Part shown: piece by piece, positions 18,723 to 37,545 of the stretch
Position numbering within the stretch: the stretch's first letter is position 1
Layout: every line of letters begins with the position of its first letter
Assembly: GCA_034522495.1 (NCBI GenBank)
Contig: JAXHLG010000002.1
Location: 401,541-465,540, forward strand
Length of the DNA: 64,000 nt
Direction of reading: 5' to 3'
Source: Candidatus Moraniibacteriota bacterium
Lineage (GTDB): Bacteria > Patescibacteriota > Minisyncoccia > Moranbacterales > DUUL01
Program-made: the position numbers and the translations under genes
Notes under the pieces: generated by a model
Database searches by the model: none
Told to the model about the DNA's origin: nothing
Seen by the model: the letters and a program-made list of their open reading frames with translations, nothing else

Positions 18723-19097
18723 AGGAATTACGCGCTTGCCTCTTTATTGCCTAAAAAAAGAGAGCAAAGCTAGGCTTGGTTTTTGCATTAGGGGACTGTT
18801 TCCAAACACCGTTTTAGTACGAAATTTCTTGTTTTTTAGATAAATTTTTCAAATAATTTTTGTCCCGCATTGCGGGATAGCCTTAGCTAAGGCAAAAAAA
18901 TTTTTGGAAAATTTAGCAAAAAAGGTGGGATTGCAGTAAAAACGGTGCTTGGAAACAGTCCCATTAGTTCGAAAAAATATTTTAGAAGCAAAAAGGGTTT
19001 TCTATTAAAAATATCTTAACAAGCCTGAAAGGCAAGTGCGCATAAAACCAAGCCTTGCTTTGCTCTCGGCATTGCCGGAGAGCAATTGCGTAATTCC
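18723..19097. mobile_element. MITE-like nested palindrome, family B, copy B1
   Basis: Outer arms aggaattacgcg.../...gcgtaattcct, middle arms agagcaaagc.aggcttggttt, inner arms gggactgtttccaaacacc/ggtgcttggaaacagtccc, central hairpin cccgcattgcggg. Confidence 0.75.
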
Positions 19098-19129
19098 TAT
19101 TATAGAAAAAAATTTAAAATTGTTTTTGT

Positions 19130-20797: not shown

Positions 20798-20801
20798 GGT
20801 T

Positions 20802-20842
20802 CATATTATCATATTATCATTTTAACATTTTATCATATTAAC
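20802..20842. repeat. 8-mer tract (CATNTTAN), left part, interrupted by IS copy 1
   Basis: catattatcatattatcattttaacattttatcatattaac continues at 22175-22268 on the other side of the IS. Confidence 0.75.
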
Positions 20843-22174
20843 ATCACTCGTGTCCGGTTCACAAATCCCACAAACAAGCCTGTTTTCCGCCGCTTCTTTT
20901 AAAATTTTGCAATTCAGGATTACTAAACAGCTCAACCATGGGAGTTTTAGTTAGGACTGACACGTTCAAAATTTGTAATATTTCGTAGAGGTTCTTTTCA
21001 ATCTTCCATTGTTTTTTGAAAATGGCTACTACAAGATAAGCGCAAATGGCAATGCAGATTTGGGTTTTTACCGCGTTCTCTGAGCGGCCCCAGAAGGCTT
21101 TGATCTTGAGATGCTGCTTGATCCACTTGAAAAACAATTCAATTTGCCAGCGGTGCTTGTACAGGGCGGCTATTTTCTCAGCAGAAAGATTAAAATCGTT
21201 GCTCAAGTAAGTGAAATACTTTTTGCTTTCTTGATCAAAGAATTTAATCCTCCTTAATTTCTCCGGATACCTCTTAGAGCTTTTCCAATTGCTAAGCTTG
21301 ATTATCTGATCGCAGCAAATCCCTGTTCCTTTTTCCTTCCTGTTGGAATAAATTCTTTCAAATCCCAGACACTCCTTGGCTCTGATAACAAAGAAGGCTC
21401 CTTTTCGGTGAATTTTGTAAAGCCTGCCGTAATCTATGTAGCCCCGGTCCAGAATGTAATGCGCTTCCGGTTCAATTTCGATCGAATCCAGGAATTCCAG
21501 ATCGTGCCTTTTGGCGCTAGTGATTTCAAACATGGCGGGAATATTGCCGTCAAGGTCCATTTGCAGATTCAGCTTCACCCCGGCTCTTACAGTCTTGAGC
21601 TTGGCCCAGGAGAAAAGAGAAAGGCAGAGTTCGATTACCGATGAATCTATAATGTAGCAAGCCCCGTTCAGTTCCAAATTAAAATTGTCATCGCCTGCAT
21701 ACAGCTTTCTGGCTTTATCAATCAATATTCCCGCCAGGTCCCTGTAAATCCTCCAATCCCTTTTTTCGCTGGCATCGGAAAGAGTTGATCTTGAAATAAT
21801 GCTGGAAAAACCCAAGTTGCGGATTTTTCCCTGCTGGGAGCTCAAGCAGTTGACAACGTCCCGGAGACTTTCCCGATGAGAAATCTGCCCAAAAAAGAGA
21901 GCTAGGAATTGATTCCAGCAAGTAAGTTTTTTTACTGCCGAATTGCCCCGGTATCTATCCACGCATCGGTTGAATTCATAACGTGGGATGTGATCTGCAA
22001 GCTGAGAAAGAACATATTTTCCATGATACATTTGAGTAATTGATAATTGCTTAAAAAACAATATCAATTATCCCATTATTTCCGTTCAAGCCAAAAAAAA
22101 TTCTTGTCCCTTGATTTTGGCTCTGGAAAGCCAAAATCAGGAGATGAGAAAAAAATTAACCGGACACGAGTGAT
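20843..22174 (-). mobile_element. IS4-family insertion sequence, copy 1 (1332 bp)
   Basis: Perfect 17-bp terminal inverted repeats ATCACTCGTGTCCGGTT. Flanking direct repeat attaac (6 bp; 10 bp atattaacat if the ends are taken as CACTCG). Single DDE transposase ORF. Confidence 0.9.
20859..22067 (-). CDS. IS4-family DDE transposase
   Basis: 402 aa. DUF4372-like N-terminus (YHGKYVLSQLADHIPRYEFNRCVDRYRGN), D in YIIDSSVIE, D in YILDRGYIDY, and Y(2)R(3)E(6)K in YKHRWQIELFFKWIK. Confidence 0.85.
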   Translation of the reverse strand: MILFFKQLSITQMYHGKYVLSQLADHIPRYEFNRCVDRYRGNSAVKKLTCWNQFLALFFGQISHRESLRDVVNCLSSQQGKIRNLGFSSIISRSTLSDASEKRDWRIYRDLAGILIDKARKLYAGDDNFNLELNGACYIIDSSVIELCLSLFSWAKLKTVRAGVKLNLQMDLDGNIPAMFEITSAKRHDLEFLDSIEIEPEAHYILDRGYIDYGRLYKIHRKGAFFVIRAKECLGFERIYSNRKEKGTGICCDQIIKLSNWKSSKRYPEKLRRIKFFDQESKKYFTYLSNDFNLSAEKIAALYKHRWQIELFFKWIKQHLKIKAFWGRSENAVKTQICIAICAYLVVAIFKKQWKIEKNLYEILQILNVSVLTKTPMVELFSNPELQNFKRSGGKQACLWDL

Positions 22175-22268
22175 ATTAACATATAAACATTTTAACATAT
22201 TATCATATTATCATTTTATCATATGAACATTTAAGCATTCAAACATACAAGCATCTAAACATTTAATC
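22175..22268. repeat. 8-mer tract, right part
   Basis: attaacatataaacattttaacatattatcatattatcattttatcatatgaacatttaagcattcaaacatacaagcatctaaacatttaatc. Confidence 0.75.
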
Positions 22269-22349
22269 AATTTTATTTTTAGGGACTGCTTCCAAACACC
22301 ATTTCGTTACGAAATTTCCAATTATTTCTTGAACTCGGGAACTAAAAAC

Positions 22350-22372: not shown

Positions 22373-23704
22373 ATCACTCGTGTCCGGTTCACAAATCCCA
22401 CAAACAAGCCTGTTTTCCGCCGCTTCTTTTAAAATTTTGCAATTCAGGATTACTAAACAGCTCAACCATGGGAGTTTTAGTTAGGACTGACACGTTCAAA
22501 ATTTGTAATATTTCGTAGAGGTTCTTTTCAATCTTCCATTGTTTTTTGAAAATGGCTACTACAAGATAAGCGCAAATGGCAATGCAGATTTGGGTTTTTA
22601 CCGCGTTCTCTGAGCGGCCCCAGAAGGCTTTGATCTTGAGATGCTGCTTGATCCACTTGAAAAACAATTCAATTTGCCAGCGGTGCTTGTACAGGGCGGC
22701 TATTTTCTCAGCAGAAAGATTAAAATCGTTGCTCAAGTAAGTGAAATACTTTTTGCTTTCTTGATCAAAGAATTTAATCCTCCTTAATTTCTCCGGATAC
22801 CTCTTAGAGCTTTTCCAATTGCTAAGCTTGATTATCTGATCGCAGCAAATCCCTGTTCCTTTTTCCTTCCTGTTGGAATAAATTCTTTCAAATCCCAGAC
22901 ACTCCTTGGCTCTGATAACAAAGAAGGCTCCTTTTCGGTGAATTTTGTAAAGCCTGCCGTAATCTATGTAGCCCCGGTCCAGAATGTAATGCGCTTCCGG
23001 TTCAATTTCGATCGAATCCAGGAATTCCAGATCGTGCCTTTTGGCGCTAGTGATTTCAAACATGGCGGGAATATTGCCGTCAAGGTCCATTTGCAGATTC
23101 AGCTTCACCCCGGCTCTTACAGTCTTGAGCTTGGCCCAGGAGAAAAGAGAAAGGCAGAGTTCGATTACCGATGAATCTATAATGTAGCAAGCCCCGTTCA
23201 GTTCCAAATTAAAATTGTCATCGCCTGCATACAGCTTTCTGGCTTTATCAATCAATATTCCCGCCAGGTCCCTGTAAATCCTCCAATCCCTTTTTTCGCT
23301 GGCATCGGAAAGAGTTGATCTTGAAATAATGCTGGAAAAACCCAAGTTGCGGATTTTTCCCTGCTGGGAGCTCAAGCAGTTGACAACGTCCCGGAGACTT
23401 TCCCGATGAGAAATCTGCCCAAAAAAGAGAGCTAGGAATTGATTCCAGCAAGTAAGTTTTTTTACTGCCGAATTGCCCCGGTATCTATCCACGCATCGGT
23501 TGAATTCATAACGTGGGATGTGATCTGCAAGCTGAGAAAGAACATATTTTCCATGATACATTTGAGTAATTGATAATTGCTTAAAAAACAATATCAATTA
23601 TCCCATTATTTCCGTTCAAGCCAAAAAAAATTCTTGTCCCTTGATTTTGGCTCTGGAAAGCCAAAATCAGGAGATGAGAAAAAAATTAACCGGACACGAG
23701 TGAT
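22373..23704 (-). mobile_element. IS4-family insertion sequence, copy 2 (1332 bp), same orientation as copy 1
   Basis: Same 17-bp TIRs. Flanking direct repeat agatat (or atagatatat). The transposase and all listed spurious ORFs translate identically to copy 1. Confidence 0.9.
22389..23597 (-). CDS. IS4-family DDE transposase (identical to 20859..22067)
   Basis: 402-aa translation identical to copy 1. Confidence 0.85.
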   Translation of the reverse strand: MILFFKQLSITQMYHGKYVLSQLADHIPRYEFNRCVDRYRGNSAVKKLTCWNQFLALFFGQISHRESLRDVVNCLSSQQGKIRNLGFSSIISRSTLSDASEKRDWRIYRDLAGILIDKARKLYAGDDNFNLELNGACYIIDSSVIELCLSLFSWAKLKTVRAGVKLNLQMDLDGNIPAMFEITSAKRHDLEFLDSIEIEPEAHYILDRGYIDYGRLYKIHRKGAFFVIRAKECLGFERIYSNRKEKGTGICCDQIIKLSNWKSSKRYPEKLRRIKFFDQESKKYFTYLSNDFNLSAEKIAALYKHRWQIELFFKWIKQHLKIKAFWGRSENAVKTQICIAICAYLVVAIFKKQWKIEKNLYEILQILNVSVLTKTPMVELFSNPELQNFKRSGGKQACLWDL

Positions 23705-23749
23705 AGATATATTATAAAGAATAAGTATTGAAATTTTTAAAAAACCAAA

Positions 23750-24196
23750 ATGCAAAATAAAAAGACGGTTATATTGATAGTTTTGATTGTTCTACTCCTT
23801 TCAGGAGTGGGAGTTTTCGGGTATTTGATTTATGCGGAAAAAAACAAACAAGCAAAGGAGATTCAGGGAGAAGTCTCAAAGCAGAAAAATCTTCAAGACA
23901 ACCAAAATCAATCGAAGGTTAAAGAATTAAAAAGTTTCGAGGGCATGGTTAAGGCCAGGGAGGAAAACTTTTTGAGGGTGGAATTTAGTTATGAAGGAAA
24001 AACGTGGCAGTCTAAAGTTGATAAAAACGAGGAAACTTTTATCGGGAAAGCTTCAAGAGATGAAAACTCTTTTCCTCAAGAGTTGGCCATGGAAGAAATT
24101 AAAGAAGGAGACTTGGTAATTGTTAGTTCTCAAGAAAACATATTGGCCAAAGAATCGTTTCCGGCTAGCATGATAATGGTGGCGGAAAAAAAATAG
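23750..24196 (+). CDS. Small N-terminally membrane-anchored protein, paralog family member 1
   Basis: MQNKKTVILIVLIVLLLSGVGVFGYLIYAEK. The N-terminus and 5' UTR are homologous to 32331..32723. Confidence 0.65.
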   Translation: MQNKKTVILIVLIVLLLSGVGVFGYLIYAEKNKQAKEIQGEVSKQKNLQDNQNQSKVKELKSFEGMVKAREENFLRVEFSYEGKTWQSKVDKNEETFIGKASRDENSFPQELAMEEIKEGDLVIVSSQENILAKESFPASMIMVAEKK

Positions 24197-24202
24197 AAAT
24201 TT

Positions 24203-26879
24203 CTTTTCGGCGCGCGCGAAAAAAGCAGTTGAAAAAAGCGGGTCAACAGCCCCATAAAACGCCAAGGCCGTTCATATATATCTTAGGGAAAAAGCTATGA
24301 AATATTTAAATAAATCAAGTCCGATATCCTGTATATTATTATTGGCCTTGTTTTCCCTCCTCTTTTCCTTCTCAACGCTAGGCGGCAATAACGCTTCAGC
24401 TGTTGTTATGATACCCTCGGGAGAAGACGGCGCTGAGGATAAAACAATTGCTGATATTAGCATCAGCCAATTAAAAGTGGTTGAACAAAAAGACCATCAA
24501 GTCAAGCTGTCTTTTGCTGTTTACAATCTTTCCAACAGATTTCAGCCGGATGTTGAATATGGCATAAGATTATTCAGGAAAGAGGCGGTTGAGTCGGAGC
24601 ACGGCACGGAAGAAGAGGGAACAAGCTCCAAAGAGTTTCACCCGGGGGATGTCTTGTATGAGAAAATAGATCCCGAGAGCATGGATTTATCTCCAGGAGA
24701 GAAAATTGACAAGAAAGAGGCCTACGAGATGCCTTCCCATCTGGAAGGAGAATTCCTAATCCAGTTATTTGCCAAGACTTCCTCCGGCCTGTTTTTGGGT
24801 ATGGCCGAAACTGAAGTTGTAAAAATGGAAAAAGGAGAAGACGGCATAGAGCTGGACCACAAAGAATGCCGCCTTCTGAAGAATTCCAATACAGAAGAAG
24901 AATACGCTCTGTCCGATCCGATATACATTAATTCTCAAGAGCAATTAGCCATCAAATGCTTATTGAGCAATGATTCCCCGGAAACAAGAACGATAATGCC
25001 CGCCTTTGATATTTATGAAGAAAGCATTTTCGGGGAAAAAATAGAAACGGAATCAAACCCCGGCAAGATTTCAATTGAACCGAAAGAATCCAGAGAGATA
25101 AGCCTGAATGTACCGAAAACTAAATCCCCCGGTTCGTATTATGCTGCTTTGCATTTAAAGCAGGGGGAAGCGGCGGTTTCTAACAGGATATATTTCAACT
25201 ATGCCGTAGAAGGGTTATCCGCCTCCATTTATGACATCAAGGCGAATCAAGAAGAAAATCAAAACATCTCGGTTTCTTTTTACTGGAGCGGAATCAGGGA
25301 GAATTTTGCTCCCGGGACTCAAGAAAGGCCAAGCCCAAAAAATCAAGACCTTCAACTAAGCCTAAGAATCGTTGACCAGCATGGAAAAGACTGCGCTTCT
25401 CCCGTAACAAAATCTTTAAGCGGCGAAAAGAATTACTCGGAATTTTCTACTTCCGTGATCAAAAGCTGCGCTTCTCCTTACGCGGAAGCCAAGATAAAAA
25501 ACCAAAAAGGCGAGGTTCTCGACGAAATTAAAGTTAGAGCCGCCTCCATGGAAAAGAAAGAAAAGAAAGAAGCTGCTCCCGGGGAAAACGCTTCCGAGGA
25601 CAACGCCCTGATTTTAATTGCCTCAGCTCTGATTGTTTTGTTCTTGATTTTTCTTCTGTGGTGGCTTTTGGTTAAGAAAAAGCTGCTCAAAAAGAGCTTT
25701 CTGGCCTTGTTTGTCTTTTTGTCAGCTTTTGTTTTTCTGGCATGGGATATTGGAGAGGTGAACGCGGGAGGTTGGAAATGGCTTGGTTATCGTATGCTAG
25801 GATATACTAGTCAACCTAACCACTGGGAACCTAAGGATTATTACACATATCATTATTATGAAGATGAAAGCTACCCCGCTCAGGCGGATGATGAGATTAC
25901 CGGTCAAATTTATGGGAAACTTTATGGAAAGCACTGTAGCGGCTGGATGAAGGTTAACGGTGTTACGGTGTGGCGCCTACGGTTTCCAACAGACTTTGGC
26001 AGTGGTTCTGGTCCTGGTACTTATATTAGCGGTCAAAGGAGCTGGCCGCATGGATGTGAAGGTACTTACCGGGTTGAATATGAGTGGATGTTTAATTATG
26101 ATAGTAGTGGTGATGGTGTTTGCAACGAAACAGCTGAAGGAGATAACACTCAGAAGTATAAAATTATTTGCGATGAAGCCGAAGATTATCGCTGCCGCTG
26201 GAATAGCGTGTGGAAATACGACGCCTGCGGCTGCCCCGACGAATATATTGAAAGCTGCCCCACCGGATACTGCGATTACGGAGGCGACGTGGATTATTAT
26301 TGTTCCGGAGACAAGCTGATGGGCGTGTATGATTACGTAAGACAAGGCTGCCGGGCGGGAGCTTGCTATACTGGCAATGTATGGCACAACTCCTGCGGAT
26401 CATTTGTAAAAGAGGATTGCTCTGATCTGCCCAACTATTGCGAAGAGTGGGATGATGACTGGACTTGTAAAGACGAAACCACGAAAATGAAAAGCAGGGA
26501 ATGCTATAATTCCGGCTGTTCTTCCGCCTCTTGCTACGGAGATTCATATACTGAAACTAAAGAAGAGGAATGCTTGAAAGACGGAGTTCAGGGCAGATGC
26601 ATCAACGGCGCTTGTTTCTATCAAGGAGCCTGCGGCAGCGCAAATGACTCGGATCCGACGTGCGAGGCGCCGAAAGACAATTTATGTTTAATTAATTTTT
26701 ATGACGACCCAGTGGTCCGGTACGACAGCGCTGACGGCGATAAGTCAAAAGACAAATACTACTGGACCTGCGAAGGAGCCGATCAAGACAGCGATCAGGA
26801 TGATGCTAATTGCAGCGTGGAAAGAGATTGCCAAGTAACGTCAGAGGGCTGGCGCGAGGCGTCGTTTTGATTGTTCTGC
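24203..26879 (+). repeat. Tandem repeat unit 1 (2677 bp)
   Basis: Starts at cttttcggcgcgcgcgaaaaaagc. The same junction recurs at 26880 and 29560. Confidence 0.95.
24297..26870 (+). CDS. Surface protein, copy 1 (857 aa): signal peptide, about 430-aa N-terminal domain, TM hairpin, Cys-rich C-terminal domain
   Basis: SP LLLALFSLLFSFSTLGGNNASA. TM1 ALILIASALIVLFLIFLLWWLLV, loop KKKLLKKS, TM2 FLALFVFLSAFVFLAW. 28 Cys after TM2 (my count). Terminal CGSAN...LC...YWTC...CSV module. Confidence 0.8.
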   Translation: MKYLNKSSPISCILLLALFSLLFSFSTLGGNNASAVVMIPSGEDGAEDKTIADISISQLKVVEQKDHQVKLSFAVYNLSNRFQPDVEYGIRLFRKEAVESEHGTEEEGTSSKEFHPGDVLYEKIDPESMDLSPGEKIDKKEAYEMPSHLEGEFLIQLFAKTSSGLFLGMAETEVVKMEKGEDGIELDHKECRLLKNSNTEEEYALSDPIYINSQEQLAIKCLLSNDSPETRTIMPAFDIYEESIFGEKIETESNPGKISIEPKESREISLNVPKTKSPGSYYAALHLKQGEAAVSNRIYFNYAVEGLSASIYDIKANQEENQNISVSFYWSGIRENFAPGTQERPSPKNQDLQLSLRIVDQHGKDCASPVTKSLSGEKNYSEFSTSVIKSCASPYAEAKIKNQKGEVLDEIKVRAASMEKKEKKEAAPGENASEDNALILIASALIVLFLIFLLWWLLVKKKLLKKSFLALFVFLSAFVFLAWDIGEVNAGGWKWLGYRMLGYTSQPNHWEPKDYYTYHYYEDESYPAQADDEITGQIYGKLYGKHCSGWMKVNGVTVWRLRFPTDFGSGSGPGTYISGQRSWPHGCEGTYRVEYEWMFNYDSSGDGVCNETAEGDNTQKYKIICDEAEDYRCRWNSVWKYDACGCPDEYIESCPTGYCDYGGDVDYYCSGDKLMGVYDYVRQGCRAGACYTGNVWHNSCGSFVKEDCSDLPNYCEEWDDDWTCKDETTKMKSRECYNSGCSSASCYGDSYTETKEEECLKDGVQGRCINGACFYQGACGSANDSDPTCEAPKDNLCLINFYDDPVVRYDSADGDKSKDKYYWTCEGADQDSDQDDANCSVERDCQVTSEGWREASF

Positions 26880-29559
26880 CTTTTCGGCGCGCGCGAAAAA
26901 AGCAGTTGAAAAAAGCGGGTCAACAGCCCCATAAAACGCCAAGGCCGTTCATATATATCTTAGGGAAAAAGCTATGAAATATTTAAATAAATCAAGTCCG
27001 ATATCCTGTATATTATTATTGGCCTTGTTTTCCCTCCTCTTTTCCTTCTCAACGCTAGGCGGCAATAACGCTTCAGCTGTTGTTATGATACCCTCGGGAG
27101 AAGACGGCGCTGAGGATAAAACAATTGCTGATATTAGCATCAGCCAATTAAAAGTGGTTGAACAAAAAGACCATCAAGTCAAGCTGTCTTTTGCTGTTTA
27201 CAATCTTTCCAACAGATTTCAGCCGGATGTTGAATATGGCATAAGATTATTCAGGAAAGAGGCGGTTGAGTCGGAGCACGGCACGGAAGAAGAGGGAACA
27301 AGCTCCAAAGAGTTTCACCCGGGGGATGTCTTGTATGAGAAAATAGATCCCGAGAGCATGGATTTATCTCCAGGAGAGAAAATTGACAAGAAAGAGGCCT
27401 ACGAGATGCCTTCCCATCTGGAAGGAGAATTCCTAATCCAGTTATTTGCCAAGACTTCCTCCGGCCTGTTTTTGGGTATGGCCGAAACTGAAGTTGTAAA
27501 AATGGAAAAAGGAGAAGACGGCATAGAGCTGGACCACAAAGAATGCCGCCTTCTGAAGAATTCCAATACAGAAGAAGAATACGCTCTGTCCGATCCGATA
27601 TACATTAATTCTCAAGAGCAATTAGCCATCAAATGCTTATTGAGCAATGATTCCCCGGAAACAAGAACGATAATGCCCGCCTTTGATATTTATGAAGAAA
27701 GCATTTTCGGGGAAAAAATAGAAACGGAATCAAACCCCGGCAAGATTTCAATTGAACCGAAAGAATCCAGAGAGATAAGCCTGAATGTACCGAAAACTAA
27801 ATCCCCCGGTTCGTATTATGCTGCTTTGCATTTAAAGCAGGGGGAAGCGGCGGTTTCTAACAGGATATATTTCAACTATGCCGTAGAAGGGTTATCCGCC
27901 TCCATTTATGACATCAAGGCGAATCAAGAAGAAAATCAAAACATCTCGGTTTCTTTTTACTGGAGCGGAATCAGGGAGAATTTTGCTCCCGGGACTCAAG
28001 AAAGGCCAAGCCCAAAAAATCAAGACCTTCAACTAAGCCTAAGAATCGTTGACCAGCATGGAAAAGACTGCGCTTCTCCCGTAACAAAATCTTTAAGCGG
28101 CGAAAAGAATTACTCGGAATTTTCTACTTCCGTGATCAAAAGCTGCGCTTCTCCTTACGCGGAAGCCAAGATAAAAAACCAAAAAGGCGAGGTTCTCGAC
28201 GAAATTAAAGTTAGAGCCGCCTCCATGGAAAAGAAAGAAAAGAAAGAAGCTGCTCCCGGGGAAAACGCTTCCGAGGACAACGCCCTGATTTTAATTGCCT
28301 CAGCTCTGATTGTTTTGTTCTTGATTTTTCTTCTGTGGTGGCTTTTGGTTAAGAAAAAGCTGCTCAAAAAGAGCTTTCTGGCCTTATTTGTCTTTTTGTC
28401 AGCTTTTGTTTTTCTGGCATGGGATATTGGAGAGGTGAACGCGGGAGGTTGGAAATGGCTTGGTTATCAAATGCTAGGATATAGTTATCAGGATGGACAT
28501 ACTTATGTATATCATTATTATAATGATGAAAACTACTCCTGGTCGGTGGATAATTGGCAGGCGGATGATGAGATCACCGGTCGAATTTTTGGGAGACTTT
28601 ATGGAAAGCACTGCAATGGCTGGATGAAGGTTAACGGTGTTACGGTGTGGCGCCTACGGTTTCCAACAGACTTTGGTAGTAGTTCTGGTCCTGGTACTTC
28701 TGTTAGCGGTCAAAGGAGCTGGCCGCATGGATGCGCCGAAGGTACCTATCGGGTTAAATATGAGTGGATGTTTAATTATGATAGTAGTGGTGATGGTGTT
28801 TGCAACGAAACAGCTGAAGGAGATCTCACTCAGAAGTATAAAATTATTTGCGATGAAGCCGAAGATTATCGCTGCCGCCGGAATAGCGTGTGGAAATACG
28901 ACGCCTGCGACTGTCCCGACGAATATATTGAAAGCTGCCCCACCGGATACTGCGATTACGGAGGCGACGTGGATTATTATTGTTCCGGAGACAAGCTGAT
29001 GGGCGTGTATGATTACGTAAGACAAGGCTGCCGGGCGGGAGCTTGCTATACTGGCAATGTATGGCACAACTCCTGCGGATCATTTGTAAAAGAGGATTGC
29101 TCTGATCTGCCCAACTATTGCGAAGAGTGGGATGATGACTGGACTTGTAAAGACGAAACCACGAAAATGAAAAGCAGGGAATGCTATAATTCCGGCTGTT
29201 CTTCCGCCTCTTGCTACGGAGATTCATATACTGAAACTAAAGAAGAGGAATGCTTGAAAGACGGAGTTCAGGGCAGATGCATCAACGGCGCTTGTTTCTA
29301 TCAAGGAGCCTGCGGCAGCGCAAATGAATCGGAGTCGACATGCGAGGCGCCGAAAGACAATTTATGTTTAATTAATTTTTATGACGACCCAGTGGTCCGG
29401 TACGACAGCGCTGACGGCGATAAGTCAAAAGACAAATACTACTGGACCTGCGAAGGAGCCGATCAAGACAGCGATCAGGATGATGCTAATTGCAGCGTGG
29501 AAAGAGATTGCCAAGTAACGTCAGAGGGCTGGCGCGAGGCGTCGTTTTGATTGTTCTGC
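26880..29559 (+). repeat. Tandem repeat unit 2 (2680 bp)
   Basis: ORF start offset 26974-24297 = 2677. Identical upstream 94 nt. Confidence 0.95.
26974..29550 (+). CDS. Surface protein, copy 2 (858 aa)
   Basis: First 498 aa identical to copy 1. Different variable cassette. Private substitutions CRRNS, ACDCP, ANESESTCE. Confidence 0.8.
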   Translation: MKYLNKSSPISCILLLALFSLLFSFSTLGGNNASAVVMIPSGEDGAEDKTIADISISQLKVVEQKDHQVKLSFAVYNLSNRFQPDVEYGIRLFRKEAVESEHGTEEEGTSSKEFHPGDVLYEKIDPESMDLSPGEKIDKKEAYEMPSHLEGEFLIQLFAKTSSGLFLGMAETEVVKMEKGEDGIELDHKECRLLKNSNTEEEYALSDPIYINSQEQLAIKCLLSNDSPETRTIMPAFDIYEESIFGEKIETESNPGKISIEPKESREISLNVPKTKSPGSYYAALHLKQGEAAVSNRIYFNYAVEGLSASIYDIKANQEENQNISVSFYWSGIRENFAPGTQERPSPKNQDLQLSLRIVDQHGKDCASPVTKSLSGEKNYSEFSTSVIKSCASPYAEAKIKNQKGEVLDEIKVRAASMEKKEKKEAAPGENASEDNALILIASALIVLFLIFLLWWLLVKKKLLKKSFLALFVFLSAFVFLAWDIGEVNAGGWKWLGYQMLGYSYQDGHTYVYHYYNDENYSWSVDNWQADDEITGRIFGRLYGKHCNGWMKVNGVTVWRLRFPTDFGSSSGPGTSVSGQRSWPHGCAEGTYRVKYEWMFNYDSSGDGVCNETAEGDLTQKYKIICDEAEDYRCRRNSVWKYDACDCPDEYIESCPTGYCDYGGDVDYYCSGDKLMGVYDYVRQGCRAGACYTGNVWHNSCGSFVKEDCSDLPNYCEEWDDDWTCKDETTKMKSRECYNSGCSSASCYGDSYTETKEEECLKDGVQGRCINGACFYQGACGSANESESTCEAPKDNLCLINFYDDPVVRYDSADGDKSKDKYYWTCEGADQDSDQDDANCSVERDCQVTSEGWREASF

Positions 29560-32235
29560 CTTTTCGGCGCGCGCGAAAAAAGCAGTTGAAAAAAGCGGGT
29601 CAACAGCCCCATAAAACGCCAAGGCCGTTCATATATATCTTAGGGAAAAAGCTATGAAATATTTAAATAAATCAAGTCCGATATCCTGTATATTATTATT
29701 GGCCTTGTTTTCCCTCCTCTTTTCCTTCTCAACGCTAGGCGGCAATAACGCTTCAGCTGTTGTTATGATACCCTCGGGAGAAGACGGCGCTGAGGATAAA
29801 ACAATTGCTGATATTAGCATCAGCCAATTAAAAGTGGTTGAACAAAAAGACCATCAAGTCAAGCTGTCTTTTGCTGTTTACAATCTTTCCAACAGATTTC
29901 AGCCGGATGTTGAATATGGCATAAGATTATTCAGGAAAGAGGCGGTTGAGTCGGAGCACGGCACGGAAGAAGAGGGAACAAGCTCCAAAGAGTTTCACCC
30001 GGGGGATGTCTTGTATGAGAAAATAGATCCCGAGAGCATGGATTTATCTCCAGGAGAGAAAATTGACAAGAAAGAGGCCTACGAGATGCCTTCCCATCTG
30101 GAAGGAGAATTCCTAATCCAGTTATTTGCCAAGACTTCCTCCGGCCTGTTTTTGGGTATGGCCGAAACTGAAGTTGTAAAAATGGAAAAAGGAGAAGACG
30201 GCATAGAGCTGGACCACAAAGAATGCCGCCTTCTGAAGAATTCCAATACAGAAGAAGAATACGCTCTGTCCGATCCGATATACATTAATTCTCAAGAGCA
30301 ATTAGCCATCAAATGCTTATTGAGCAATGATTCCCCGGAAACAAGAACGATAATGCCCGCCTTTGATATTTATGAAGAAAGCATTTTCGGGGAAAAAATA
30401 GAAACGGAATCAAACCCCGGCAAGATTTCAATTGAACCGAAAGAATCCAGAGAGATAAGCCTGAATGTACCGAAAACTAAATCCCCCGGTTCGTATTATG
30501 CTGCTTTGCATTTAAAGCAGGGGGAAGCGGCGGTTTCTAACAGGATATATTTCAACTATGCCGTAGAAGGGTTATCCGCCTCCATTTATGACATCAAGGC
30601 GAATCAAGAAGAAAATCAAAACATCTCGGTTTCTTTTTACTGGAGCGGAATCAGGGAGAATTTTGCTCCCGGGACTCAAGAAAGGCCAAGCCCAAAAAAT
30701 CAAGACCTTCAACTAAGCCTAAGAATCGTTGACCAGCATGGAAAAGACTGCGCTTCTCCCGTAACAAAATCTTTAAGCGGCGAAAAGAATTACTCGGAAT
30801 TTTCTACTTCCGTGATCAAAAGCTGCGCTTCTCCTTACGCGGAAGCCAAGATAAAAAACCAAAAAGGCGAGGTTCTCGACGAAATTAAAGTTAGAGCCGC
30901 CTCCATGGAAAAGAAAGAAAAGAAAGAAGCTGCTCCCGGGGAAAACGCTTCCGAGGACAACGCCCTGATTTTAATTGCCTCAGCTCTGATTGTTTTGTTC
31001 TTGATTTTTCTTCTGTGGTGGCTTTTGGTTAAGAAAAAGCTGCTCAAAAAGAGCTTTCTGGCCTTATTTGTCTTTTTGTCAGCTTTTGTTTTTCTGGCAT
31101 GGGATATTGGAGAGGTGAACGCGGGAGGTTGGAAATGGCTTGGTTATCAAATGCTAGGATATAGTTATCAGGATGGACATACTTATGTATATCATTATTA
31201 TAATGATGAAAACTACTCCTGGTCGGTGGATAATTGGCAGGCGGATGATGAGATCACCGGTCGAATTTTTGGGAGACTTTATGGAAAGCACTGCAATGGC
31301 TGGATGAAGGTTAACGGTGTTACGGTGTGGCGCCTACGGTTTCCAACAGACTTTGGTAGTAGTTCTGGTCCTGGTACTTCTGTTAGCGGTCAAAGGAGCT
31401 GGCCGCATGGATGCGCCGAAGGTACCTATCGGGTTAAATATGAGTGGATGTTTAATTATGATAGTAGTGGTGATGGTGTTTGCAACGAAACAGCTGAAGG
31501 AGATCTCACTCAGAAGTATAAAATTATTTGCGATGAAGCCGAAGATTATCGCTGCCGCTGGAATAGCGTGTGGAAATACGACGCCTGCGGCTGCCCCGAC
31601 GAATATATTGAAAGCTGCCCCACCGGATACTGCGATTACGGAGGCGACGTGGATTATTATTGTTCCGGAGACAAGCTGATGGGCGTGTATGATTACGTAA
31701 GACAAGGCTGCCGGGCGGGAGCTTGCTATACTGGCAATGTATGGCACAACTCCTGCGGATCATTTGTAAAAGAGGATTGCTCTGATCTGCCCAACTATTG
31801 CGAAGAGTGGGATGATGACTGGACTTGTAAAGACGAAACCACGAAAATGAAAAGCAGGGAATGCTATAATTCCGGCTGTTCTTCCGCCTCTTGCTACGGA
31901 GATTCATATACTGAAACTAAAGAAGAGGAATGCTTGAAAGACGGAGTTCAGGGCAGATGCATCAACGGCGCTTGTTTCTATCAAGGAGCCTGCGGCAGCG
32001 CAAATGACTCGGATCCGACGTGCGAGGCGCCGAAAGACAATTTATGTTTAATTAATTTTTATGACGACCCAGTGGTCCGGTACGACAGCGCTGACGGCGA
32101 TAAGTCAAAAGACAAATACTACTGGACCTGCGAAGGAGCCGATCAAGACAGCGATCAGGATGATGCTAATTGCAGCGTGGAAAGAGATTGCCAAGTAACG
32201 TCAGAGGGCTGGCGCGAGGCGTCGTTTTGATTGTT
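29560..32235 (+). repeat. Tandem repeat unit 3 (ends just after the stop codon)
   Basis: ORF start offset 29654-26974 = 2680. Homology ends at tgattgtt|aataaagg. Confidence 0.95.
29654..32230 (+). CDS. Surface protein, copy 3 (858 aa), chimeric between copy 2 (5' part) and copy 1 (3' part)
   Basis: The variable cassette equals copy 2. Downstream sites (CRWNS, ACGCP, ANDSDPTCE) equal copy 1. Confidence 0.8.
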   Translation: MKYLNKSSPISCILLLALFSLLFSFSTLGGNNASAVVMIPSGEDGAEDKTIADISISQLKVVEQKDHQVKLSFAVYNLSNRFQPDVEYGIRLFRKEAVESEHGTEEEGTSSKEFHPGDVLYEKIDPESMDLSPGEKIDKKEAYEMPSHLEGEFLIQLFAKTSSGLFLGMAETEVVKMEKGEDGIELDHKECRLLKNSNTEEEYALSDPIYINSQEQLAIKCLLSNDSPETRTIMPAFDIYEESIFGEKIETESNPGKISIEPKESREISLNVPKTKSPGSYYAALHLKQGEAAVSNRIYFNYAVEGLSASIYDIKANQEENQNISVSFYWSGIRENFAPGTQERPSPKNQDLQLSLRIVDQHGKDCASPVTKSLSGEKNYSEFSTSVIKSCASPYAEAKIKNQKGEVLDEIKVRAASMEKKEKKEAAPGENASEDNALILIASALIVLFLIFLLWWLLVKKKLLKKSFLALFVFLSAFVFLAWDIGEVNAGGWKWLGYQMLGYSYQDGHTYVYHYYNDENYSWSVDNWQADDEITGRIFGRLYGKHCNGWMKVNGVTVWRLRFPTDFGSSSGPGTSVSGQRSWPHGCAEGTYRVKYEWMFNYDSSGDGVCNETAEGDLTQKYKIICDEAEDYRCRWNSVWKYDACGCPDEYIESCPTGYCDYGGDVDYYCSGDKLMGVYDYVRQGCRAGACYTGNVWHNSCGSFVKEDCSDLPNYCEEWDDDWTCKDETTKMKSRECYNSGCSSASCYGDSYTETKEEECLKDGVQGRCINGACFYQGACGSANDSDPTCEAPKDNLCLINFYDDPVVRYDSADGDKSKDKYYWTCEGADQDSDQDDANCSVERDCQVTSEGWREASF

Positions 32236-32270
32236 AATAAAGGAAAAAGATTGATAAGGTAAAAGTTTTA

Positions 32271-32298
32271 TTGACAGGTTTTTCTCGAGATGTATTAT
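32271..32298 (+). promoter_or_regulatory. Sigma70-like promoter of the 130-aa anchor-protein gene
   Basis: TTGACA (32271-32276), 16-nt spacer, TATTAT (32293-32298). Homologous to the split promoter at 22350 / 23705. Confidence 0.45.
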
Positions 32299-32330
32299 AG
32301 GAGATAAGTACTGAAATTAAAAAAACCAAA

Positions 32331-32723
32331 ATGCAAAATAAAAAAATGGTTATATTAATAGTTTTGATTGTTTTAGTCCTCTTGTGTGCAGGAGTTTTTG
32401 GTTATTTGATTTATGCGGAAAAAGCTGAGCAAAAAAAGTCGGGACGAAACAATCAGGATTTGTTAGATCAAGAAAAGGAGGATGAGGGAAAAGAAGAAAA
32501 AAGCTGGGGTGATATGTCGGATGAAGAAAAGGATAAAATTTTGAACGAGAGAGTTCCCTTGGAAGAGTCATCAGGTGGCACTAATGATAATAGTGAAACA
32601 GGTGGCGGGAACACCAAGATTCATTCAGAAGAAGAGGTGCAGGGGTTGCTTCTTAATGAAAGAGAGTCTGCGCCGGAAGGAGGACCCACCAAAGAGGACG
32701 CACTCAAGGTTTTAAATGAATAA
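32331..32723 (+). CDS. Small N-terminally membrane-anchored protein, paralog family member 2
   Basis: MQNKKMVILIVLIVLVLLCAGVFGYLIYAEK followed by an acidic, low-complexity ectodomain. Confidence 0.65.
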   Translation: MQNKKMVILIVLIVLVLLCAGVFGYLIYAEKAEQKKSGRNNQDLLDQEKEDEGKEEKSWGDMSDEEKDKILNERVPLEESSGGTNDNSETGGGNTKIHSEEEVQGLLLNERESAPEGGPTKEDALKVLNE

Positions 32724-32762
32724 TTGCTGTTATCTTAAGATTTTATAATTAAAATAATAATA

Positions 32763-34889
32763 ATGAAAAAAATAGTAAATTTTGCGAATTGGTCGCTGGG
32801 AGTAGCTTTGCTTGGCATGTTCGGAGGTTTGATCCTTCAAAAAGTTGAGGCATGGAGTGAGCCGCCTGATAGTCCACCCAATTCAAATGTTGGAGCGCCT
32901 CTTAATACCGGAGAGCAAGGACAAATGAAACAAGCCAAGTTGATTTTGAACATGCCGGCTGATGATGGCAGTGTCCAAACAAGCGGCTTGCTTGTTCCTT
33001 ACGGGAAAGTAGGATTAGGAACATTGTTTCCGGAGTCCAAGTTGCACATAGAAGAAAGCCTTACAACTGATACCTCTGGATACGGGGATGTCACTATGGA
33101 CGCTACCATTAGAACCGGAGCTGTTAATTATGATGGCGGTTATGGTGACTGGCCGGCCGGATTTTCTGTAAAGGTCAATGATGTCGACACTAATCTTCCC
33201 GGCGGCAGTGCAGGAATAGAGGTTTATAGCGGTATTGACGGTGTTTCCAGAGCTACTATGTTAGTTAATGCAGACTGGCAGGGAAAGACAGGAAAGCCAA
33301 CCTGGGGCGCGCTCTTGGGAGTGGTTCAAGATAGAATCAACACTCGCGGATTTGCATCTTGGATTGAAGATGGTTTGGATAACAAAGTAGATGGAAGCCA
33401 TGCTTATCTAAGCAACAGGGATAGTGACGGAAAGCTATTTTCAGGAAAGTTCGAAGGAGACGTTTATGTAAGAGATGATTTAGGTGTCGGAACAAGAGAT
33501 CCCAATGAAAAGTTGGATGTAAGAGGCAACATTGTTGCTAGCGGAACCATTTGCGATACCAATGGATGTATTGGAGATGGAGGAGGATCTTCTTTGTGGA
33601 ATCAAAACGGGAGTGATATTTATTATAATGGGGGTAACGTTGGCATTGGCAGAAACAATCCGCAGGATGAACTCGATGTTAATGGAGATCTATTGTTAAG
33701 CAAAGAAGATATTTATGCGGATACTTTTAGTTTCGGCAATGCAGCTAAAGTCTATACGGGAAGAAATGACGGATATTTGCTTCTTGCGGGGGGTAATGCC
33801 CAAGGGGACACAACAAATGGATCCGTCTTGGCGTTAACCGGGAAAAATATAAGCGATAGCTTTAGCGGTGTTCAGCCAAGGGATGACGGGGTAATAGCAG
33901 CTGGGATAAAAGGAAACTCTAACGGTTTTTACGTTTATGATTACAATACTTTTCAATGGCGTTTTAGCGTAAACGCCGAAAGAACATATGTTCATGATAA
34001 CCTTGGTGTCGGAACTGAAAATCCGCTGGGTAAGCTCCACGTAGAGGAGGAGAAGGTAACTAACGTAGCTGGAACGGATTATACTATGGATGCCACTATT
34101 CGGACCGGAGCGGTTAATTATACGGGCTATGGAGATTATCCCGCCGGCTTGTCGGTCAAAGTCAATAGTATTAGCAATGATGTGCCTGGAGGGACTGCTG
34201 GAGTAGAAGTTTACAGCGGTAAAGATAATGTTTCAAGGGCTACATTGCTGGTAAATGGGGATTGGGACAACAACGGAAGAGATACCTGGGGAGCTATTTT
34301 GGGAGTAGTGAAAGATGGAAATAATGTTAGAGGCTTGAATACTTGGATAGAGAGTGATTTAGGTGGCAGCAGCAAGTCCGGTGACGCTAAATTAAGTTAT
34401 AAGGATCCAAGCGGAAACCTTTATTCGGCATACTTTAGTGATTATGTATATGTAAACGACGATTTAAGGGTGAATGGGACGGTGCACCATAAAGGATTAA
34501 ATAATTACTCGGATATGAGGTTGAAGCAATCTGTAAATTCAATAGAGGGGTCTTCGTTGGAAAAACTGACCAAGCTTAGAGGAGTTTCTTTTGAATGGAA
34601 AGATAATCCGGGAGAAAAAGAAATTGGATTGATCGCTCAAGAAGTAGAAAAAATATACCCGGAATTAGTTGAGGAGGACAGAGAAGGAATGAAGGGAGTA
34701 CAATATTCTGCATTGGTAGCTCCAATTATAGAGGCTGTTAAAGAGCTAAAAGAAAGCTTTAGCGAAGTTAAAGACAAAATAGCAATTATCTTTGAAAGAC
34801 AAGATCGCCAAGCAGACTTATTAGAGCAACAAAATGAGCGGATTAAAGAGCTGGAAAGCAAAATAGAGGAATTGAAAAAAGCAGAATAA
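32763..34889 (+). CDS. Secreted tail-fibre-like protein with a C-terminal Peptidase_S74 intramolecular chaperone domain
   Basis: Signal/anchor WSLGVALLGMFGGLILQKVEA. Internal duplication of about 165 aa. C-terminus from 34509: SDMRLKQSVNSIEG..LRGVSFEWKD..EIGLIAQEVEKIYPELV..VQYSALVAPIIEAVKEL plus a coiled coil. Confidence 0.8.
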   Translation: MKKIVNFANWSLGVALLGMFGGLILQKVEAWSEPPDSPPNSNVGAPLNTGEQGQMKQAKLILNMPADDGSVQTSGLLVPYGKVGLGTLFPESKLHIEESLTTDTSGYGDVTMDATIRTGAVNYDGGYGDWPAGFSVKVNDVDTNLPGGSAGIEVYSGIDGVSRATMLVNADWQGKTGKPTWGALLGVVQDRINTRGFASWIEDGLDNKVDGSHAYLSNRDSDGKLFSGKFEGDVYVRDDLGVGTRDPNEKLDVRGNIVASGTICDTNGCIGDGGGSSLWNQNGSDIYYNGGNVGIGRNNPQDELDVNGDLLLSKEDIYADTFSFGNAAKVYTGRNDGYLLLAGGNAQGDTTNGSVLALTGKNISDSFSGVQPRDDGVIAAGIKGNSNGFYVYDYNTFQWRFSVNAERTYVHDNLGVGTENPLGKLHVEEEKVTNVAGTDYTMDATIRTGAVNYTGYGDYPAGLSVKVNSISNDVPGGTAGVEVYSGKDNVSRATLLVNGDWDNNGRDTWGAILGVVKDGNNVRGLNTWIESDLGGSSKSGDAKLSYKDPSGNLYSAYFSDYVYVNDDLRVNGTVHHKGLNNYSDMRLKQSVNSIEGSSLEKLTKLRGVSFEWKDNPGEKEIGLIAQEVEKIYPELVEEDREGMKGVQYSALVAPIIEAVKELKESFSEVKDKIAIIFERQDRQADLLEQQNERIKELESKIEELKKAE

Positions 34890-34908
34890 ATAAATCTTAA
34901 AGAAATTT

Positions 34909-35244
34909 ATGAAAAATGTAGTTTTAATTTTAATTGTTATCTTTGTTGTTGCTAGTGGATATTTTGGGTGGATGATTTACAAGGGGGACTCTAATGATAA
35001 AGAGGTGTCAGACAAAAATGTTTCTTCACCTAAAGAATCCCAAAAAGACAACCTTGATTCAACAAGCAATAACACCCAAATAAATACTAAACCGAGCAAT
35101 GGAGAAGATGATCCTGTAGGCACAAAAGATGCTGAATCTAGAACTTTGCCCGGTGGAGCGAACCGTGACACAACAACTGAAGTTGAAAGTAAAGAGGAAA
35201 GTGAAACGTCGAAGCCTTTTCCAAGGGTTCCGCAGGATGGTTAA
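34909..35244 (+). CDS. Small N-terminally membrane-anchored protein, paralog family member 3 (more distant)
   Basis: MKNVVLILIVIFVVASGYFGWMIYKG followed by a low-complexity S/T/D/E-rich tail. Confidence 0.55.
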   Translation: MKNVVLILIVIFVVASGYFGWMIYKGDSNDKEVSDKNVSSPKESQKDNLDSTSNNTQINTKPSNGEDDPVGTKDAESRTLPGGANRDTTTEVESKEESETSKPFPRVPQDG

Positions 35245-35311
35245 TGATTTAGAATAATAAAGATTGCAAAATTTTGTGGAAAAAGTGTGGATAAGTGAAT
35301 AGAGATTTTGG

Positions 35312-35339
35312 AAAAATGGCCTAAAAAGGCCATTTTTTT
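35312..35339 (+). terminator. Intrinsic terminator closing the surface island
   Basis: aaaaatggcc-taaaaa-ggccattttt followed by ttg. Confidence 0.7.
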
Positions 35340-35364
35340 GTGGCTTGAAAATGAATGAAAATGT

Positions 35365-35415
35365 TTGACAAGGGTAACATTGTGGAATATAATGTAATCA
35401 AGTGGTGAGAAGTGG
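35365..35415 (+). promoter_or_regulatory. mraZ/dcw promoter with candidate MraZ operator boxes
   Basis: TTGACA (35365-35370), 17-nt spacer, TATAAT (35388-35393). GTGG boxes at 35382, 35402 and 35412, spaced 20 and 10 nt. Confidence 0.5.
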
Positions 35416-35546
35416 GGAATTGCAAAGAATTTGAAATTTGAAATTTTTAATTTGAAATGCCCCGCAAAAACAGTTGCAAGAGGTTTAAAAATGTTTCTTA
35501 AAGGTTAATTCAAAATTGAAAATTTCGAATTAAAAATTGTTTTATT

Positions 35547-35981
35547 ATGTTCATCGGCGAGTATCAACATTCTATTGACGCGAAAAAGAGGCTGGCTATG
35601 CCTTCCAAGTTCAGGCGGAACTTTAAAAATAAAGCGGTGGTGACGAGGGGTTTGGACAATTGCTTGTTTGTTTACCCGATGAAAGAGTGGGAAAAGATTG
35701 CGGAGAAACTTGGCAATATGCCGGTGGGGGAAAGCGCCACCAGAAGCTTTGTCAGGCTTATGCTTGCCGGAGCGGTGGATGTGGAGCTGGATTCTCAGGG
35801 AAGGGTTTTGGTTCCGGATTATTTGAAAAAATACGCCGGCCTGAACAAAGAAGTGGTTATCGCCGGTTTGTATAATCGGTTGGAAATTTGGGACAAGAAG
35901 AACTGGGAAAAATACAAAGAAAGCGCCGAAAAGAATCAGGACAAAATTGCGGAGGAATTGGGAAAGCTGGGAATATATTGA
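35547..35981 (+). CDS. mraZ: Transcriptional regulator MraZ
   Basis: MFIGEYQHSIDAKKRLAMPSKFR..., a second DxxGR repeat (ELDSQGRVLVPDYL), position upstream of rsmH. Confidence 0.95.
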   Translation: MFIGEYQHSIDAKKRLAMPSKFRRNFKNKAVVTRGLDNCLFVYPMKEWEKIAEKLGNMPVGESATRSFVRLMLAGAVDVELDSQGRVLVPDYLKKYAGLNKEVVIAGLYNRLEIWDKKNWEKYKESAEKNQDKIAEELGKLGIY

Positions 35982-35983
35982 TT

Positions 35984-36009
35984 CATTTAAACATATAAGC
36001 ATTTAAACA
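35984..36009. repeat. Short 8-mer tract (CATNTAAA)
   Basis: catttaaacatataagcatttaaaca. Confidence 0.6.
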
Positions 36010-36092
36010 AGATTTTCTACAAAGTTCATAAAGTTATCGAGATTCTTAACATTGGACGCTAATTACCAATTACCAATCACAATTATAAAAAT

Positions 36093-37154: not shown

Positions 37155-37545
37155 GAGAGGCATGAAACTATATTTAAACCTCTGGAATTTTTTTGGTTTG
37201 CGGTTTGGAGTGGCTGGTTTTGCAAAATAAATCCAAATGTCCCACCGCCCCGCGGGGTCCCGCTTTCATCAGGTAGATAAAAGTAGCGGGAAAAGCTCAA
37301 ATGACAATTCAAAGTCAAAATTTAAATGACCAATAAAATTTAATGGTGTAAATGTTGCGAGAAAAACACAAATTAAAAAAGTTGCAAGTTTGTTATTTGA
37401 GTTTTGTAATTTGGGAATTGTTTGTAATTTGTAATTTGTGTATTTCCGGACTTTGCTTTAAGAATGGGTTGCGTGACTAAATTATGTATATTATCAGTTG
37501 AATTATTGTAAGAATTAATATTGGGGGGGGGGTGTGTTAAATAAT

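Follow-up and report, generated by a model that had tools for sequence, protein, structure and literature searches.

Why should a streamlined bacterial genome carry three adjacent, nearly identical copies of one large gene, and are the copies real, how did they arise and what might they encode? The question was raised by a 64,000-nt stretch of DNA (the window) from the 1,308,268-bp contig of a Candidatus Moranbacteria metagenome-assembled genome (MAG) of the Patescibacteria, in which the original prediction, made from the letters alone, had noticed a head-to-tail triplication of a complete surface-protein gene together with its upstream region in what it took to be a small genome. The contig of 1.31 Mb and the patescibacterial origin agree with the latter, and three co-oriented units, each with an intact open reading frame (ORF), were indeed found. 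We consider, on balance and not firmly, that the array is a lineage-specific tandem amplification, from one copy to three, of a cell-surface gene whose copies are still exchanging sequence by homologous recombination or gene conversion. The kind of amplification is already known; what is new is the host lineage, the Patescibacteria, and the gene's membership of an uncharacterised, widespread family with an apparent internal signal peptide.

Self-BLAST of the window aligned 24203-29555 with 26880-32235 at 98.5% identity (units 1-2 against units 2-3) and 24203-26875 with 29560-32235 at 97.6% identity (unit 1 against unit 3), and the identity from copy to copy ranged from 97.6 to 99.7%. Because 2.68 kb is present three times at an identity of at least 97.6%, a chance repeat is impossible. 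The units are adjacent and co-oriented and have the same novel junction at both internal boundaries, which is the structure of a tandem segmental amplification. The ORF list gave the same starts (24297, 26974 and 29654) and the same periods (2677 and 2680 nt) as had been reported before, as well as the spurious ORFs on the opposite strand. The units start at 24203, 26880 and 29560, which places the boundary 94 nt before each ATG, and a candidate ribosome-binding site, AGGGA, was located 7 nt upstream of every ATG.

The MAFFT alignment of the three units contained 85 variable columns out of 2,695, with none in the first 1,506. The first nucleotide difference, at 25709 / 28386 / 31066, was G/A/A, the synonymous exchange TTG/TTA in codon 471, and the earliest amino-acid difference was at codon 499, so that the first 498 codons translate identically, as claimed. 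The near-perfect nucleotide identity that had been deduced from this held for the 5' 1,506 nt of the units; it did not hold further downstream, where a diverged, indel-bearing patch (patch A) was found together with a second small patch (patch B) showing the opposite grouping of the copies. All of the differences between copies were strongly clustered in the C-terminal 45% of the ORF. In patch A (codons 471-623), copy 1 was the odd one out and copies 2 and 3 were identical; copy 1 differed from them by 20 nonsynonymous and 10 synonymous codons and by indels of 15, 15 and 3 nt (two of five codons and one of a single codon). In patch B (codons 641-652 and 790-794), copy 2 was the odd one out and copies 1 and 3 were identical; the seven substitutions, in two clusters, affected five nonsynonymous and two synonymous codons. 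Every indel was a multiple of 3, and all three ORFs remained intact.

Synonymous (dS) and nonsynonymous (dN) divergence was estimated by the Nei-Gojobori method. For codons 1-470 of every pair, dS was 0 over about 300 synonymous sites and dN was 0. In the 66-codon stretch of codons 495-560, dS between copies 1 and 2 was 0.29 and dN was 0.19, while in the 3' patch (codons 631-863) copy 2 differed from copies 1 and 3 with a dS of 0.015 and a dN of 0.009. The opposite copy groupings and the uneven dS indicate segments with different histories, and therefore gene conversion, unequal exchange or the import of a diverged allele; this mosaic, dS-heterogeneous pattern cannot have come from one duplication with even drift thereafter. 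The pattern of patches thus directly implies that copies or alleles have recombined, and the suggestion that the array is a recent or actively homogenised amplification of a surface gene was essentially right, given that dS reaches 0.29 in one stretch of 66 codons but is 0 across the 300 synonymous sites of codons 1-470. The third copy would have been added by RecA-type unequal exchange between units, and the same exchange would keep the units homogenised over most of their length. In the exposed C-terminal module (C-module, described below), the proximal part would either have escaped homogenisation or have been imported from a diverged allele. The copy number of such an array is expected to be unstable.

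These divergence values also bear on a neutral explanation, in which the amplification is very recent and transient, recombination with DNA of another strain, taken up for instance by natural competence, brought in the diverged patch, and the array has neither maintenance nor function. That more than 1.6 kb of each unit is free of differences agrees with it, as does the dS of 0.29 in the patch, which is far above that of the rest and is what foreign allelic DNA would give; bacterial duplications, moreover, arise and vanish at high rates. However, the density of differences tapered gradually over about 450 nt without sharp borders, the second patch with its different copy grouping demands another event, and a neutral addition of 5.4 kb to a streamlined genome of 1.3 Mb should be lost quickly. 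We regard this explanation as rather unlikely; it overlaps with the amplification with continuing exchange that we favour and differs from it only by denying maintenance.

The junctions were examined for the origin of the array. At the left flank the sequence is ...GAAATTT|CTTTTCGG, at both internal junctions it is ...GTTTTGATTGTT-CTGC-CTTTTCGG, with GATTGTT immediately before CTGC, and at the right exit ...GTTTTGATTGTT|AATAAAGG. The 4-nt filler CTGC, at 26876-26879 and 29556-29559, matches neither outer flank and had not been described before. A 14-mer covering the junction, GTTTTGATTGTTCT, occurred in the window at the two junctions and in the transmembrane (TM)-coding 5' part of the small genes that flank the array, and nowhere else; it was exact at 23780-23793 in the upstream small gene and had one mismatch at 32361 in the downstream small gene, against a chance expectation of 0.06 occurrences in 64 kb. 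The array is bracketed by direct repeats with 82% identity, which are formed by the 5' regions of the two small genes (23736-23857 and 32317-32438). Because the small-gene 14-mer recurs at the junctions, the founding junction may have formed by an illegitimate event (microhomology or template switch), possibly via the 5' region of a flanking small gene; alternatively, a repeat of the form [small][big][small] could have arisen and then lost part of its sequence by deletion. An amplification bracketed by insertion sequences (IS) was rejected, since the two IS4 copies of the region lie outside the array with a small gene between, and the junctions contain no IS sequence.

Could the three units have been made by the assembler out of a gene with one or two copies and strain variants? 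The sequence comes from one MAG, the differences between copies resemble allelic variants, and the region is rich in repeats, including two tandem, 100% identical IS4 copies just upstream; tandem repeats are a recognised cause of assembly errors. Nevertheless, the tandem junction (...GATTGTT+CTGC+CTTTTCGG) can be assembled only if reads contain it, repeats are as a rule collapsed by assemblers and not expanded, two independent patches tell the three copies apart, and a single contig of 1.31 Mb suggests long reads. The independent k-mer assembly of run SRR26473339 in Logan was also informative. Its contig L008, which matched window positions 32206-37256 at 99.88% identity and encodes the 130-aa small protein, begins exactly 30 nt before 32236, the first position at which the exit of the array differs from the internal junction. 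We take the Logan assembly to have used k = 31; a contig that starts k-1 nt inside shared sequence is what a branch of the de Bruijn graph would produce, which implies that both continuations are present in the reads. The upstream 148-aa protein had no match in the k-mer contig index. With distinguishable copies and the apparent branch at L008, we judge a pure artefact to be very improbable. The features of the array, its product and its neighbours are listed in Table 1.

Table 1. Position of the features of the array, its encoded protein and its neighbours (numbered from the first letter of the window)
Feature	Position	Strand	Description	Evidence or identifier
Repeat unit 1	24203..26879	+	2677 nt: 94-nt upstream region, coding sequence, 5 nt, CTGC filler	MAFFT, BLAST
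Repeat unit 2	26880..29559	+	2680 nt	MAFFT, BLAST
Repeat unit 3	29560..32235	+	2676 nt; ends ...GATTGTT; unique sequence from 32236
Coding sequence, copy 1	24297..26870	+	857 aa	U5L10_01910, MDZ7611493.1 (exact match)
Coding sequence, copy 2	26974..29550	+	858 aa	U5L10_01915, MDZ7611494.1 (exact match)
Coding sequence, copy 3	29654..32230	+	858 aa	U5L10_01920, MDZ7611495.1 (exact match)
Internal junction 1	26864..26879	+	GTTTTGATTGTTCT + GC
Internal junction 2	29544..29559	+	same sequence as junction 1
Patch A, copy 1	25709..26146	+	equivalents 28386-28826 (copy 2), 31066-31506 (copy 3)
Patch B, copy 2	28879..29340	+	equivalents 26199-26660 (copy 1), 31559-32020 (copy 3)
Predicted signal peptide	26974..27078	+	aa 1-35, ...NASA|VV; copy 2 given, identical in all copies	sequence reading, hydropathy
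Conserved N-module	27115..28218	+	aa 48-415, three predicted beta-sandwich domains, family-defining	AlphaFold2, predicted local distance difference test (pLDDT) >90
TM helix 1, loop and second hydrophobic segment	28273..28440	+	aa 434-460; KKKLLKK; aa 463-489
C-module, proximal domain	28441..28863	+	aa 490-630, beta-rich; holds the main variable patch
C-module, cysteine-rich distal domain	28885..29547	+	aa 638-858
Upstream small protein	23750..24196	+	148 aa, N-terminally anchored
Downstream small protein	32331..32723	+	130 aa, paralogue of the 148-aa protein
708-aa secreted/anchored protein	32763-34889		directly downstream of the array

The upstream signals proposed for every copy are unproven: the 94 nt and the AGGGA motif are identical in all copies, but a consensus scan of the 94-nt region gave no sigma-70-like promoter (promoters of the Candidate Phyla Radiation (CPR) are poorly known). 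The same scan placed good promoter candidates before both small genes, at 23686-23715 and at 32271-32298 (11 of 12 matches). A weak terminator-like hairpin overlaps the stop codon of each copy, and RNA from the junction with its upstream region folded no more stably than shuffled sequences (z = +1.15).

The architecture of the protein was analyzed next to its sequence. Hydropathy segments were found at aa 10-28, 437-455 and 463-488. AlphaFold2, run with a 59-sequence alignment, gave three beta-sandwiches at aa 48-415 (pLDDT mostly >90), helices at aa 434-460 and 464-482, and a poorly defined C-terminal part. A Foldseek search of the full-length model against the PDB returned generic FN3, Ig, macroglobulin and transglutaminase beta-sandwiches only, at a TM-score of at most 0.17, and no functional inference was drawn from scores this low. 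Neither Pfam-A nor NCBIfam contained a family matching the array protein, even at E <= 10, and the PDB sequences gave no match at E <= 1. The surface nature proposed for the protein is in line with the predicted signal peptide, beta-sandwich ectodomain and TM segments. Around the second hydrophobic segment the protein reads KKKLLKK-SFLALFVFLSAFVFLAW-DIGEVNA|GGW; the VNA|GG in it is permissible for signal peptidase and is not the consensus AxA. From these features, the N-terminal signal peptide would export the protein, TM helix 1 would hold the three Ig/FN3-like beta-sandwiches at the membrane, and the second hydrophobic segment, after the basic loop, would re-export the C-module with its variable beta-rich and disulfide-rich domains. 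Both modules would then lie outside the cell, and signal peptidase may free the C-module from its anchor.

The two domains of the C-module differed in distribution. The proximal domain (aa 490-630) had no detectable homologue. The distal cysteine-rich domain was seen in only four other proteins, with an identity of 46-49% to P0005, P0007 and a 726-aa protein of locus L009, and of 36% to P0118. P0007 is U5L10_01335 of the same genome, a separate 329-aa protein with 10.9% cysteine that is 49% identical to the distal domain; judged by its locus-tag number, it is encoded about 115 genes upstream of the array. Because the distal domain is also found there, the cysteine-rich domain appears to be a mobile module within this genome. 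An MdbA-like thiol-disulfide oxidoreductase with VKOR is reported to be enriched in CPR genomes (10.1101/335083), an enrichment that would suit an extracellular disulfide-rich domain.

The original prediction had not recognised the protein. It is uncharacterised and has no Pfam or NCBIfam model, as noted above, but it is no orphan. An exhaustive phmmer search of 1.84 billion representative sequences gave 1,036 clusters at E <= 1e-3, with 825 of these at <= 1e-10 and 104 at <= 1e-30, and thus a patescibacterial family of more than 1,000 clusters. The matching proteins are 405-1,887 aa long, and nearly all of them align with aa 15-480, at an identity of 24-32%. A word-indexed homology search was nearly blind to the family, returning two matches with the full protein, one with the alignment and none with the C-module. 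The named members are all annotated as 'hypothetical protein' and come from Patescibacteria (Moranbacteria/Moraniibacteriota, Yonathbacteria and Pacebacteria). Since the family is widespread and uncharacterised, the protein does not belong to a well-characterised family, and its novelty stands. A hidden Markov model (HMM) of the N-module scored 461 bits on each array copy. The N-modules of NTV44436.1 (Yonathbacteria), MFH0969443.1 and P0002 (Pacebacteria) align with aa 15-480 at 24-32% identity (E 1e-30 to 1e-51), and these proteins have, like the array protein, a TM hairpin and a variable C-module at the same positions.

We surveyed by hydropathy the 145 members, among the matches listed, in which a strong TM helix follows the N-module. 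Sixteen of the 145 end within 40 aa after that helix, and 127 carry a second hydrophobic segment; a basic loop was present in 123 of these 127. An AxA motif (typically AKA|DTF) followed within 18 residues after the second segment in 80 of the 127, in comparison with 9 of 127 in a control window. Taken together, the basic loop and the AxA enrichment are what an internal signal peptide would be expected to show; in each array copy this signal-peptide-like element lies at aa 456-492. These sequence features suggest that the family consists of polyprotein-like precursors, each with an anchored N-module and an exported C-module. Across the Patescibacteria the anchor is conserved and the C-modules are highly variable. 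The array protein differs from the rest of the family in its rare C-module, whose proximal domain is unique, and in the VNA|GGW after the second segment in place of the common AKA|DTF.

Next, the copy number of the family at other loci was determined with the N-module HMM on six-frame translations of about 45 loci. Most loci had one family gene, and two were present in L001, L007 and L032/L034; in L005, two modules are fused in one ORF. The pairs in this census were only 28-59% identical, with 35-59% for neighbouring paralogues, and none of the roughly 45 other family loci contained near-identical tandem copies. The family thus duplicates locally, and the near-identical array is found only at the present locus among the loci examined. 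Close relatives of the array protein were absent from the genome-contig and metagenome-contig scans, and the relatives that share the locus organisation are distant (24-48% amino-acid identity) and have fewer copies. Loci L002, L003 and L012 are the same patescibacterial contig from two assemblies, with one big gene between small genes. In L002 the order is a small protein (165 aa), an N-module ORF (395 aa), an in-frame TAA, the TM hairpin with a cysteine-rich C-part (570 aa) and a small protein (149 aa); the small proteins are 45-46% identical to the 148-aa protein upstream of the array. L009, from a Moraniibacteriota MAG, has a small protein followed by one cysteine-rich protein without an N-module. 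In the literature, we found no description of tandem duplications in Patescibacteria.

Two kinds of irregular family genes were observed in this census. The single in-frame TAA of L002, at 9974-9976 between the N-module and the TM hairpin, was also present in L003, L004 and L012, and so in three independent assemblies; the homologue interrupted there could be a pseudogene, a gene split in two or one expressed by read-through. In L005 (10001-12610; P0008, 869 aa) and in P0006 (1,887 aa), one ORF encodes two N-modules, each followed by TM segments, and these two-module ORFs look as if adjacent tandem genes had fused through loss of the intervening stop.

The variable C-modules raise the possibility of programmed variation, in which the copies encode variants that are all expressed or are expressed alternately, selection keeps the C-module patch different and the rest is homogenised; surface specificity would then be switchable or combinatorial, as with the surface-antigen cassettes of mycoplasma or Neisseria. 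Several observations would be expected under it: the differences are limited to the exposed C-module, just behind the presumed internal export signal, every copy is intact, the copies evidently exchange sequence, the family as a whole combines a conserved anchor with C-modules that vary strongly, and diverged paralogue pairs occur at other loci. However, silent or promoterless cassettes were not found, the 5' regions being identical in all copies; the unit contains no invertase, inverted repeats or simple-sequence tracts; dN/dS was below 1, and the main patch exists in only two distinct versions. The lack of a reverse transcriptase, substitutions that are not adenine-specific and the presence of indels also speak against a diversity-generating retroelement. 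We therefore hold programmed variation to be unlikely.

Specific devices of this kind were rejected individually. The array is not the target of a diversity-generating retroelement, because there was no reverse transcriptase among the window ORFs scanned and the copies differ by all substitution types and by the 15-, 15- and 3-nt indels. A phase-variable or cassette locus (mycoplasma vlp/vsa, Neisseria pilE/pilS) does not fit complete copies with identical 5' regions. Tandem Repeats Finder detected no array within the unit, no significant inverted repeats flanked a promoter, and no recombinase was adjacent to the array besides the IS4 transposases. A wider proposal is that the array is a variation device of an episymbiotic CPR bacterium, in which an anchored 'stalk' is kept identical by gene conversion and the exposed C-modules, freed by way of the family's internal signal peptide, are kept different and reshuffled, with fast change of copy number; we put this forward as a speculation with a low chance of being correct. 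If it were true, attachment to host or substrate could be tuned without a dedicated recombinase or retroelement, and the family of more than 1,000 clusters would provide the Patescibacteria with a general polyprotein system of the type 'anchor plus exchangeable passenger'.

Under the reading that we favour, an amplification with continuing exchange between copies, the array would raise the dose of the surface protein and offer two or three slightly different exposed C-modules, plausibly with an effect on the attachment or interaction of the episymbiotic cell with its host or substrate. Several points weigh against it. The simplest unequal crossover in a two-copy array puts the hybrid copy in the middle, contrary to the observed order, so that a one-step crossover was rejected as the source of the order of patch types and at least one extra conversion event is needed. 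A dN/dS of 0.4-0.7 in the patches gives no support for diversifying selection. Three copies and their tandem order rest on one MAG assembly and on the indirect argument from the contig break, and the 100% identity of the 5' 1.5 kb may be partly inflated by polishing with cross-mapped reads. Because the unit contains no promoter-like site, a dosage effect needs read-through or an unrecognised type of promoter. The function of the protein is wholly inferred, and AlphaFold2 on the C-module alone (5-sequence alignment) reached a mean pLDDT of 35.5, without a usable model. Finally, short-read assemblies collapse arrays and most census contigs are short-read, so that the apparent rarity of arrays in relatives is biased.

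The array was compared with known systems. The RecA-dependent amplifications of Salmonella and E. coli consist of head-to-tail units with one novel junction repeated, are unstable and have a dosage effect. The array shares with them the head-to-tail units and the repeated novel junction, and the instability and dosage effect would be expected of it. Classical amplifications usually have long repeats (IS, rrn, REP) as their endpoints or arise when selection is strong, whereas the junction of the array has short homology only and four filler nucleotides, and the IS4 copies do not bracket it. In Clostridioides difficile, SlpA and CwpV are precursors that are cleaved to conserved anchoring and variable exposed subunits. 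The array protein resembles them in logic only, having a conserved anchored module and a variable outward one, and has no kinship in sequence or fold; its anchor is a TM helix, in contrast to cell-wall-binding repeats, and its cleavage is only predicted, by signal peptidase, in contrast to cleavage by Cwp84 or autoproteolysis.

The lpl (lipoprotein-like) array of Staphylococcus aureus, a set of tandem paralogues in the nuSa-alpha island in which recombination between copies shuffles segments, is the nearest parallel described (Tsuru & Kobayashi 2008, PMC2568036). Both are tandem arrays of surface or host-interaction genes with recombination between copies, and in both the best-conserved stretch comprises the 3' end of the ORF, the intergenic sequence and the 5' part of the ORF that follows. 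The lpl paralogues are old and diverged, share a short conserved region in their centre and were compared over many genomes (PMC2568036). In contrast, the array described here has copies that are 97.6-99.7% identical, with most of the unit conserved, belongs to an unrelated protein family and is known from one genome.

Surface proteins of CPR bacteria and Patescibacteria are prime candidates for host contact, because these organisms have minimal genomes and depend on other cells, and almost none of these proteins has been characterised. A near-identical 8-kb array in a 1.3-Mb genome indicates that duplication and recombination act on surface genes despite streamlining, and the array gene is probably under recent selection for dosage or for variants. 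The description of the family is the more useful by-product, since it gives testable predictions on processing, topology and host binding. It should also be noted as a warning that short-read MAGs will conceal arrays of this kind.

The genes surrounding the array are chromosomal, and include those for ribosomal proteins L10 and L7/L12, glycosyltransferases, prfB, ftsEX and two IS4 transposases, and further mraZ, rsmH, clpB, htrA and ftsA. A prophage or phage tail-fibre locus was therefore rejected, since the array protein had no PHROG hits and its neighbours (ftsEX, prfB, mraZ and rsmH) are chromosomal. The only PHROG tail-fibre match was that of the neighbouring 708-aa protein, through its C-terminal S74 domain alone. 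This protein has an internally duplicated block of about 170 aa and ends in a Peptidase_S74 intramolecular-chaperone domain like those of phage tail fibres and endosialidases; it and the small anchored proteins encoded at 32331-32723 and 34909-35244 make up an island of surface proteins upstream of mraZ. An Rfam scan of the window detected one tRNA and nothing else.

The two IS4-family elements (20843-22175 and 22373-23705) are 100% identical over 1,333 nt, in direct orientation and 197 nt apart, and each encodes a 402-aa DDE transposase on the minus strand. Each copy abuts AT-rich repeats with a period of 8 nt (20801-20844 and 22173-22275), which suggests very recent transposition into these repeats or a target preference for them. 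Short tandem arrays of the same period, with units such as ACAATGAA, CATATAAA and TAACAATT, were present in many intergenic regions (15432-15481, 15616-15656, 16528-16581, 16702-16778, 18371-18414 and 39822-39860), and could serve the whole genome as a regulatory or structural motif. A dispersed repeat, non-coding and about 390 nt long, was found in inverted orientation at 45840-46218 and 61699-62087 (93.6% identical), with partial copies at 18981-19116 and 22268-22327, and a separate inverted pair of 212 nt (15432-15643 and 16583-16794, 90%) flanks ftsE; both may be MITE-like (miniature inverted-repeat transposable element) sequences or conserved intergenic modules. In rsmH (36093-37154), which encodes the 16S rRNA methyltransferase RsmH, an in-frame 27-nt tandem repeat at 36474-36604 (4.9 copies, 87% matches) divides the RsmH Pfam match into two stretches, and Logan contig L008 has 1-2-nt indels in and after this repeat that break the ORF there.

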